Assembly (NCBI GenBank): GCA_951406725.2
Contig: OX597833.1
Coordinates: 62,186,001-62,250,000, forward strand
Length of the DNA: 64,000 nt
Source: Octopus vulgaris
Taxonomy: Eukaryota
Reading direction: 5' to 3'
Numbering within the stretch: the stretch's first letter is position 1; the number at the start of each line of letters is the position of its first letter. Shown piece after piece: positions 23,212-25,315 of the stretch. A program made the position numbers and the translations under genes. Below the pieces are notes generated by a model that did no database searches, was not told where the DNA came from, and saw only the letters and a program-made list of their open reading frames with translations.

Positions 23212-23350
23212 ATTCTTCTTTCCTTTCTTCTTTCTTATTCCTTTCTTCTTCTTCTTTCTTTCCTTTCTTCTTCTTCTTCCTTCTTCTTCTTCTTCTTCTT
23301 CTTCTTCTTCTTCTTCTTCTTCTTCTCTTTCTTCTTTACTTTCTTCTTCT
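22700..23350 (+). repeat. Long (TTC)n-rich polypyrimidine tract
   Basis: About 650 bp of almost purine-free TTC/CTC repeats. Confidence 0.97.
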
Positions 23351-23351
23351 T

Positions 23352-23680
23352 GGACTACATTATCTAAGGTGTCCTTCCTTGTTGTTTAATTCTAGGTCAA
23401 CCCTGATCCATGACTAATGACATTCCAGCTGTGACCATCCCATTTTTTTAAAAATTCAAACATAGTGTAACTAGGATTATATTATCTAACGTGTCCTTCC
23501 TTATTGTTTTAACCTAGGTCAACCCTGATACAGCTGACCGATGACTAACGACATTCCAGCTGTGACCATCCCATCTTTTATTCAAGCATAGTGTATCTCA
23601 GACTATATTTAAGTGTTCTTCCTTGTTGTTTAGCTCTCATTCAAACCTAATCTAGCGGACCCATGATCAACAGCATTCTA
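23352..23680 (+). repeat. Tandem ~120-130 bp copies of a dispersed repeat (also ~43265, ~54600, ~54900)
   Basis: Recurrent TAGGTCAACCCTGAT...ACATTCCAGCTGTGACCATCCC...ACATTATCTAA.GTGTCCTTCCTT. Confidence 0.7.
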
Positions 23681-23692
23681 ACCTAAACCCTT

Positions 23693-23879
23693 TAATTATT
23701 TACATTATTTACATTTGACAGATATTTGTCCTCATCCTGTTTGTTAACACAATGTTTTGGCTGATATACCCTCAAGGGCTTCATCAGGTGTCTTGAGGGG
23801 AAATTTCGAACCTGGGTTCTCATTTCTAGGATATTTTTCGATGTTGTTGTTATCATAATTATTATTATTATTATTATTA

Positions 23880-23915
<36 letters not shown>

Positions 23916-24266
23916 TCACTGCCTGGAATTGAACTCGGAATCTTGGGGGTCAGTAGCCTGTTCTCTTAATCACTACGCCAAATGCCCACGGACATATGGT
24001 GTAGTGGTTAAGAGCATGGGCTACTAACCCCAAGATTCCGAGTTCAATTCCAGGCAGTGACCTGAATAATAATAATTATAAATATAATAACATCAAAAAA
24101 TACCCTAGGAATGAGAGCCCAGGTTCGAAATTTCCCCAAGACACCTGATGAAGGCTGGAGGTTATATCAGCTGAAACGTTGTGTTAACAACAAACAAGAT
24201 GAGGACAAATATCCATCAATTGTAAATAATGTACATAATTCCTCATCCCCTAAATATAGAACTGTA
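23693..24266. mobile_element. Palindromic tRNA-headed, hammerhead-bearing non-autonomous retroelement (Penelope-like tail)
   Basis: Arms 23694-23987 and 23990-24240 are reverse complements. Each arm is a tRNA-like head, then (AAT)n, then a ~150 bp tail. Flanked by CTAAACCC(C)TT direct repeats. Confidence 0.8.
24141..24184 (+). ncRNA. Minimal type I hammerhead ribozyme motif
   Basis: ACAC CTGATGA A GGCTG gaggttatat CAGCT GAA ACGT T GTGT: stem I ACAC/GTGT, palindromic stem III ACGT, GUU triplet. The inverted partner at 23747-23791 has GAAACG mutated to AAAACA. Confidence 0.7.
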
Positions 24267-24901
24267 CTAAACCCCTTAACATTCAAATTTCTCCATCAAA
24301 TGTTAGGCTTATTTGTCCATATTGTTTTTGAATTCATCATACGTCGTCTCGTGGTTTTGAGGTTTCAATGATGTGATTGTTCATTTTTAGAATGACCTTG
24401 TATGATAGGTGTGAGAGGTTGGATCTGGCCACTTTGAACATAAAACTAGTAGAATATTTGGCCTGGATATGGCTGCTTTAAATGCTAAAGGATTAAACAC
24501 CTTGCTTTCTTTTTAGGGGTCTAGTTTATGTAGGATTGCACTATTCAGGTGTCCTTGTTTTGTTTTTGTTAAGATGTTAGGGATGTGAAATGAGAGGGAA
24601 TTTAGCTGTTATTTCTAACAGGGCAACTGACCATGAAGAGCCTTCCTCATTAGTTCTGATGTAATCCTGTAGGCTGTGTGATTTGGGTTTGATATATGAC
24701 AGATTAAAGATTGATGGATGGATGGCCATCATTCATTATTCATGAATAGTGTAGAGCAGTGGTGGCGGTGGGGGTGAAGTGATAGAACTTGATCATCTCT
24801 GTATGTGAAAGGTTGGAATGAGACAGTTAGATGCTGATGGTTTTGCACGGCTGACTGAACATCCAACCTGTTTTGGAGATGGTACTTTTTGGCATACATT
24901 T

Positions 24902-25315
24902 AGGCGCAGGAGTGGCTGTGTGGTAAGTAGCTTGCTAACCAGCCACATGGTTCCTGGTTCAGTCCCACTGCGTGGCATCTTGGGCAAGTGTCTTCTCTAT
25001 AGCCCCGGGCCGACCTATGCCTTGTGAGTGGATTTGGTAGACGGAAACTGAAAGAAACCTGTCATATATATATATGTATATATATGTGTGTGTATGTGTT
25101 TGTGTGTCTGTGTTTGTCCCCCTAGCATTGCTTGACAACCGATGCTGGTGTGTTTACGTCCCCGTCTCTTAGCGGTTCGGCAAAAGAGACTGATAGAATA
25201 AGTACTAAGTACTGGGCTTACAAAGAATAAGTCCTGGGGTCGATTTGCTCGACTAAAGGCGGTGCTCCAGCATGGCCGCAGTCAAATGACTGAAACAAGT
25301 AAAAGAGTAAAGAGT
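24902..25315 (+). mobile_element. Full-length tRNA-derived SINE family B (CORE-like, internal (TA)/(TG) tract)
   Basis: Head GGCGCAGGAGTGGCTGTGTGGTAAG...GGTTCAGTCCC...TTGGGCAAGTGTCTT, tail GGCGGTGCTCCAGCATGGCC...AGTAAAAGAGTAAAG. Other copies at 44247-44670 (+), 63215-63600 (-), 53860-54260 (-), 21200-21790 (-), 61968-62135 (+) and many partial ones. Confidence 0.9.

Follow-up and report, generated by a model that had tools for sequence, protein, structure and literature searches.

By definition SINEs parasitize LINEs, and RNA polymerase III (Pol III) normally makes short RNAs that are not translated. Insertions of Penelope elements are recognized by an inverted, 5′-truncated copy and by a tail at one end (PMC8557442), which in Penelope-like elements (PLEs) measures 30-40 bp (PMC8557442). 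Two internal start sites of reverse transcription, shown in vitro for a Poseidon element of the anole, explain this signature (PMC11167929). Animal non-LTR retrozymes have been proposed to derive from PLEs (PMC7229834; preprint 10.64898/2026.07.22.740005). For octopus, an annotation with 190 Penelope-like consensus sequences and a library on Zenodo has been described (PMC13282606), and the pseudo-LTR family reported here may itself be catalogued already, for example in that library. Here, a window of 64,000 nt of the Octopus vulgaris genome (contig OX597833.1, positions 62,186,001 to 62,250,000) was analysed around a palindromic insertion. Its best explanation, which we regard as likely, is a Penelope pseudo-LTR with a likely Pol III promoter yielding a short RNA that is copied by the element's own reverse transcriptase (RT)-endonuclease.

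The insertion in the window and its parent element

The alignment of the arms within the window sequence places their head-to-head joint at 23983-23989 (Table 1). A preliminary description of the same DNA, made from the letters alone, had put this meeting point at about 23988 and had named an A box, a B box, an (AAT)n stretch and a hammerhead of the same sense in the right arm as well as flanking direct repeats, all of which were recovered. It had the right arm and its RNA begin at 23990, a start that has to be moved to 23983, and it had taken the tail for non-coding, where the open reading frame of the RT-endonuclease begins. TTTT is absent from the right (direct) arm, in agreement with the description, and the nearest downstream T4 is found at 24325. 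In the core of the left-arm hammerhead GAAA has become AAAA and ACGT has become ACAT, both changes being of the CpG type that had been noticed before; one CpG-type change was also found in the right arm, at the closing pair of stem II. The copy in the window has the make-up typical of Penelope insertions: a direct arm, an inverted arm that is about 26 bp shorter, and a 13-bp target duplication. On its left it is adjoined by three imperfect tandem units of 122-131 bp (23349-23701). At 24907-25120 the window holds the beginning of another tRNA-like A/B-box repeat, present in several unrelated loci and probably an abundant SINE.

Table 1. Parts of the insertion, in positions of the window
Feature	Position	Strand	Remarks
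Target-site duplication, left	23683..23695	+	13 bp; from repeat search of the window and family-wide test
Inverted arm	23694..23987	-	pseudo-LTR positions 8-258 of 283, without the last ~26 bp (tail); (AAT)n expanded
Decayed minimal hammerhead, inverted arm	23746..23792	-	core GAAA and helix III with CpG-type changes; coordinates counted from the fold printout
B box to A box, inverted arm	23925..23980	-	from window sequence and arm alignment
Junction, a short natural palindrome	23983..23994	+	pseudo-LTR positions 1-12; putative RNA 5′ end
Direct arm	23983..24266	+	full pseudo-LTR, positions 1-284; 95% identity to family consensus
tRNA-derived segment	23990..24064	+	A box at 23997-24007 and B box at 24040-24051; by its putative function likely a type-2 promoter of Pol III
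(AAT)n spacer	24065..24091	+	length varies; in other copies often split by later insertions
First 52 codons of 835-aa Penelope RT-GIY-YIG ORF	24111..24266	+	same peptide pattern in homologs P0003/P0125 and P0136
Minimal type I hammerhead	24140..24185	+	stem I of 5 bp, a bulged A before stem II of 6 bp, helix III palindromic (ACGU); cleavage predicted after 24180
Target-site duplication, right	24267..24279	+	13 bp, 12/13 identical to the left one

The 283-bp arm is almost certainly the pseudo-LTR of an autonomous element of the Penelope/Poseidon type. The family is large and dispersed, with 2,754 first-pass candidate copies in the genome (among 40 scored, the best were 87-94% identical), and the 283-bp consensus of 30 copies retains the CUGAUGA and GAAA core expected from the preliminary description. 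The lead to the autonomous element was given by one tail-selected locus with a Penelope RT-thumb fragment at the junction; the thumb runs on into a GIY-YIG-type endonuclease, a stop codon, about 25 bp and the whole 283-bp sequence including the tRNA-like head. In an independent set of 30 loci, picked by a foreign protein query only, 27 have the head immediately after the stop of the endonuclease, and most of 30 thumb-selected loci likewise have it behind the endonuclease. On its other side, the tail passes in frame into an ORF. The consensus of the unit has a length of 2,658 bp, its 835-aa RT-GIY-YIG ORF starts at pseudo-LTR position 129 (window 24111), and the order is RT-GIY-YIG ORF, stop, about 25 bp, tRNA-like A/B boxes, (AAT)n and the ATG of the next ORF, within which the hammerhead is placed. 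Because the head follows the endonuclease stop and the tail is in frame with the ORF, both are parts of the pseudo-LTR, and the separate family that had been proposed, a SINE head fused to a Penelope tail, dissolves into the autonomous element itself. The linkage of head and tail across the genome (44 of 56 head-selected arms extend past the hammerhead) was anticipated correctly, and the GIY-YIG/RT Penelope sharing the tail that the preliminary description had proposed to look for is the 835-aa ORF unit.

The assignment to Penelope/Poseidon follows from one ORF in which the RT is joined by a GIY-YIG endonuclease at the C-terminus, from an endonuclease with the CCHH motif and without the CX2-5CxxC linker (translation read by eye against the definition in PMC8557442), and from partial-tandem pseudo-LTRs with an inverted 5′-truncated copy and a one-ended tail of about 26-35 bp. 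One copy gave an RVT_1 match just under the cut-off (E 2.7e-6) and no GIY-YIG Pfam match, while homologs at 39-42% identity have PF01541; homologs at about 55% identity have the matching hammerhead-derived peptide near the N-terminus. Homologs in the range of 55-75% identity comprise P0001, P0003, P0125, P0136, P0153 and a cluster from barnacles. Family copies diverge by about 5% outside CpG sites, no intact full-length copy was seen, and the longest open frame in one copy comprises 569 aa. Other repeats have often landed in the (AAT)n inside the element and separate head from tail there (L062, L075, L113, L287, L307, L319 and L324). No relative was present in viral contigs. The top GIY-YIG matches were rejected as source element, since they belong to other PLE families and the tail was part of the element in none of 20 short and 20 longer loci. 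Among the other PLEs of the genome, a very young family (L085-L087) has a 781-aa open frame of identical length in many copies, a different pseudo-LTR and a Zn-finger-like linker, which makes it Neptune-like by the definition in PMC8557442. One metagenome contig contains a Penelope ORF and, about 2 kb downstream of it, six tandem 135-bp units (L202:8175-8942) that are tRNA-Cys-like by ARAGORN at relaxed threshold.

The hammerhead has the features described for minimal PLE hammerheads (PMC4209133), namely a CUGANGA/GAAA core, a bulged base before stem II, a short stem I and a palindromic helix III. Both the Penelope-type minimal hammerhead and the Penelope-type inverted insertion of the preliminary description are supported. 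Core positions are conserved at 79-99% across copies, and most of 19 listed motifs of related metagenome PLEs have the same layout with differing stem sequences. In a dimer co-fold the active conformation was absent, a result without bearing on activity. Among 65 arms starting between positions 126 and 240, 14 start at 199-209, right after the predicted cut, where about 6 would be expected from an even distribution; this excess hints weakly, and post hoc, at the cleavage of some templates. Of these starts, most belong to ORF-bearing loci and several represent internal deletions; positions 200-207 form an 8-bp palindrome. Since the predicted cut after position 198 would part the head from the RT start sites, short copies would need uncut RNA, and the term "ribozyme-processed" used previously does not suit them. 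Uncut RNA was also used by the anole element in vitro (PMC11167929).

Copy ends, copy number and the candidate Pol III promoter

The ends of the copies were surveyed in several sets of loci. The duplicated insertions L076, L286, L288, L303 and L321 were left out of the lineage, target-duplication and arm-end counts, L130-L133 were also left out of the comparison of short and ORF-linked arms, and L065 was dropped from the inverted-arm survey. Of 30 loci selected by the whole arm, 24 have an adjacent inverted arm, as do 23 of 33 loci selected by the tail. The 3′ ends of head-selected arms fall into two groups, at about 245-262 (21/56 arms) and about 275-295 (22/56), and 21 of 26 complete arm pairs combine one long and one short end. 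The two sites at which copies end lie at about 250-258 and about 280-290. Target duplications, mostly of 12-15 bp, scored at least 9 in 32 of 83 family insertions compared to 0-2 of 83 in five mismatched-pair controls; where the insertion included an inverted arm, they were present in 29 of 61 cases. The unequal ends, the inverted arms and the target duplications together match the PLE signature (PMC8557442, PMC11167929). Tail-less arms usually end with a repeated 9-nt unit (pseudo-LTR positions 239-258; window 23694-23713, minus strand). The diagnostic base was A in 35 and C in 3 of 68 tail-less arms (24 ended earlier), and A in 30 and C in 61 of 98 tail-bearing arms. The 9-nt repeat points to re-priming, or to the addition of repeats, at the site where RT starts, in a manner that recalls telomerase translocation.

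For the analysis of 5′ ends, 60 arms were taken from the top of the exact-match list, and 56 remained after removal of duplicates. Among these head-bearing arms, 37 begin at positions 1-15 and 5 reach beyond -20. When arms joined at the head palindrome are set aside, 24 of the other 39 still begin at 1-15, and the stop rate per base is 0.067 at positions 1-15 versus 0.0056 downstream and 0.0037 upstream. A cut by RNase P at tRNA +1 (position 8) was rejected as the cause of these ends because many arms reach positions 1-6. Exact 17-mers were counted 986 times for the endonuclease, 1,253 times for the 3′ UTR, 6,502 times for the head, 13,472 times for the tail and 130 times for the ORF beyond the tail; since 17-mers are retained unequally (UTR 11/33, head 19/41), the true step from UTR to head is roughly 4- to 10-fold rather than exactly 5. 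Corrected for retention, a very rough estimate is 14,000 head-bearing and 35,000 tail-bearing arms.

The head of the arm is, as in SINEs, a tRNA-derived segment with A and B boxes, scored here with an A/B-box pattern. It is collinear from end to end with genomic tRNAs, of which 27 distinct ones (five isotypes plus Ala and Cys singletons) were compared; tRNA-Arg was best, with 48 of 77 columns and a z score of 6.6. The head does not form a cloverleaf, and ARAGORN found no tRNA anywhere in the window; Rfam matched neither tRNA nor hammerhead, whether in the region itself or in six copies, and its miRNA matches are due to the palindrome. The boxes and the tRNA relationship of the head as described earlier therefore stand, and a tRNA fold does not. 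On the sense strand of the 2,658-nt consensus TTTT occurs 0 times where 2.9-4.8 occurrences are expected (P 0.009-0.03), compared to 8-9 per copy in 2,343 nt in three copies of the 781-aa PLE family of the same genome; this result is modest and sets a consensus against single copies, and one single copy of the family has 3 T4 runs with 3.1 expected. One of 59 long related ORFs is devoid of T4 although it is without any tRNA-like segment. The absence of T4 from this ORF (L199) was set aside as incidental, its UTR being T-rich and the tRNA-like segment absent. The phenylalanine content of homologs, used as a proxy for T4 avoidance, was uninformative (P 0.054), and A/B boxes near the ORF were found in 0 of 80 related metagenome PLE loci.

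In two raw RNA-seq runs, read depth was equal on both strands and no pile-up was seen at the start or the cleavage site, so that the 5′ ends at 23990 and the cleavage ends after 24180 that had been predicted did not appear. The joint at 23983-23994 was the commonest opposite-strand joint among the RNA-read joints listed. Among the matches listed from a search of sequence runs, none is recorded as RNA; four contig sets from four organisms cover endonuclease, head and tail, and among the pieces listed none spans the stretch. The pile-up of 5′ ends, the jump in 17-mer counts and the missing TTTT nevertheless indicate that a Pol III promoter likely makes a short RNA and possibly the whole coding RNA, in line with the Pol III drive proposed at the outset. 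Judged from these sequence data, transcription of the short copies probably starts at the tRNA-like segment.

Proposed mechanism and alternative readings

If the pseudo-LTR indeed contains a Pol III promoter, Pol III would initiate near position 1-2, leaving about 13 nt before the A box. The RT-endonuclease of the element would cut both strands of AT-rich DNA about 13 bp apart, and reverse transcription would begin internally at two sites, as for the anole Poseidon element in vitro. Both cDNAs may then reach the RNA 5′ end or stop early, and joining by microhomology would give the palindrome with unequal ends. The template of the short copies would be uncleaved RNA, and the rarer ORF-bearing copies could result from copying that begins in the downstream pseudo-LTR of a longer RNA. 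If true, a Penelope with an internal tRNA-type promoter means that PLE machinery is able to amplify SINE-like RNAs and offers a direct path for Pol III hammerhead repeats to arise from PLEs. Both RT start sites and the putative 5′ end of the RNA are mapped by the abundant copies, and PLE integration can in this way be tested on sequence data. Repeat pipelines would probably divide the octopus family into 'SINE' and 'Penelope'.

A further-reaching reading, which we put forward tentatively and hold to be less than evenly probable, is that beyond the short RNA the entire 2.7-kb coding RNA is a Pol III transcript reading from +1 through tandem units; RT starting at the first pseudo-LTR would then give short copies and at the second long copies. 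It is consistent with a whole unit free of TTTT, although at P 0.009-0.03 only, with variants and age shared by short and ORF-linked copies (divergence 4.6% vs 5.3%, P 0.14), with ORF-bearing copies that begin near +1 (L177 at 11, L191 at 6), and with a tRNA-like segment that has the place of the D. virilis Penelope promoter, which lies upstream of the ORF within the pseudo-LTR (PMC2377424). It is opposed by the size of Pol III elements, which mostly stay below about 1.3 kb (PMC10886601), and by the need of an uncapped transcript for cap-independent translation of 835 codons. If true, it would be a testable case of a long ORF carried by a Pol III transcript. Possibly, but on balance doubtfully, a tRNA-derived Pol III promoter has here taken the place of the Pol II promoter in an autonomous coding retrotransposon, which has also purged terminators from its 2.7-kb unit and yields its own SINE as a by-product; the element would then be the missing link between Penelope and hammerhead repeats made by Pol III, like Sm-alpha of schistosomes.

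It is unlikely that the SINE head is captured, passive cargo in an ordinary Penelope, with all RNA being Pol II read-through and the 5′ pile-up being caused by RT stalling or microhomology joins. Two short palindromes, at positions 1-12 and at 24-47, do coincide with frequent junctions, the genome is rich in tRNA-derived A/B-box repeats, and the RNA reads resemble passive transcription of scattered copies. However, the pile-up remains in the arms not joined at the head (24/39), many ends at 1-9 are past the hairpin where a stall would be expected on its 3′ side, and the stop rate at head positions 16-39 is low.

An independent, non-coding, ribozyme-processed SINE/retrozyme lineage using the Penelope RT in trans is very improbable: short copies are several-fold commoner than ORF-bearing ones and each has its own promoter boxes, so that some may be secondary sources, and the starts at 199-209 give a post hoc hint, but these are mostly in ORF-bearing loci with the deletions and the palindrome mentioned above, the head lies within the autonomous element, tandem arrays of the 283-bp unit were absent from the loci examined, and the lack of any fixed diagnostic position between 81 short and 49 ORF-linked arms together with their similar divergence favours, in this small sample, common master elements over a separate SINE lineage. 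A search for free head-(AAT)n SINEs covered 16 arms ending before position 240, most of which look interrupted by later insertions or deletions. At L104:7275-7460 a hammerhead-like motif was observed with an A/B-box segment about 130 bp beyond it, which may be another element or a nested SINE.

Comparison with known systems

The literature searched yielded no autonomous PLE with a tRNA-derived promoter. Several described systems share individual features with the octopus element. Schistosome Sm-alpha and Sj-alpha are SINE-like repeats of about 300 bp in which a Pol III promoter is followed by a hammerhead (PMC6765202). They are described there as non-coding tandem repeats with an active hammerhead, whereas the octopus pairing is found in a coding autonomous element and in dispersed direct/inverted pairs. 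Animal non-LTR retrozymes are likewise short hammerhead-bearing units related to PLE pseudo-LTRs, but they are tandem and have circular RNA (PMC7229834; preprint 10.64898/2026.07.22.740005); in the octopus loci examined, head-to-tail tandem hammerhead units were absent and copies were single or head-to-head. The words tRNA, Pol III and promoter are absent from the main text of the preprint. TRIMp3 elements (Cassandra, Helenus, Ajax) also have a small-RNA-derived Pol III promoter in a retrotransposon terminal repeat, but are non-autonomous LTR elements of 0.3-1.3 kb (PMC10886601), in contrast to the autonomous octopus PLE.

With tRNA-derived SINEs, including OK, OR1 and OR2 of octopus (OR2 being a CORE SINE according to PMC4758252), the family shares a tRNA-derived head, short length and target duplications, a likeness by description and not by sequence. 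It differs in that its partner is a PLE and not a LINE, in that its 3′ end is ORF sequence instead of a simple-repeat tail, and in that it is not an independent non-autonomous family. Closest are Penelope of D. virilis and Poseidon PAc of the anole (PMC11167929), with RT plus, at the C-terminus, a GIY-YIG endonuclease with CCHH, no linker Zn finger, and a pseudo-LTR. Further traits shared with Penelope/Poseidon are a minimal hammerhead over the ORF start, two internal RT starts that give rise to the tail, and the inverted 5′-truncated copy. In the octopus element the pseudo-LTR has tRNA-derived A/B boxes and no T4, whereas D. virilis Penelope contains an intron and a LINE-like promoter that is TATA-less (PMC2377424); the octopus copies also pile up at a defined 5′ end.
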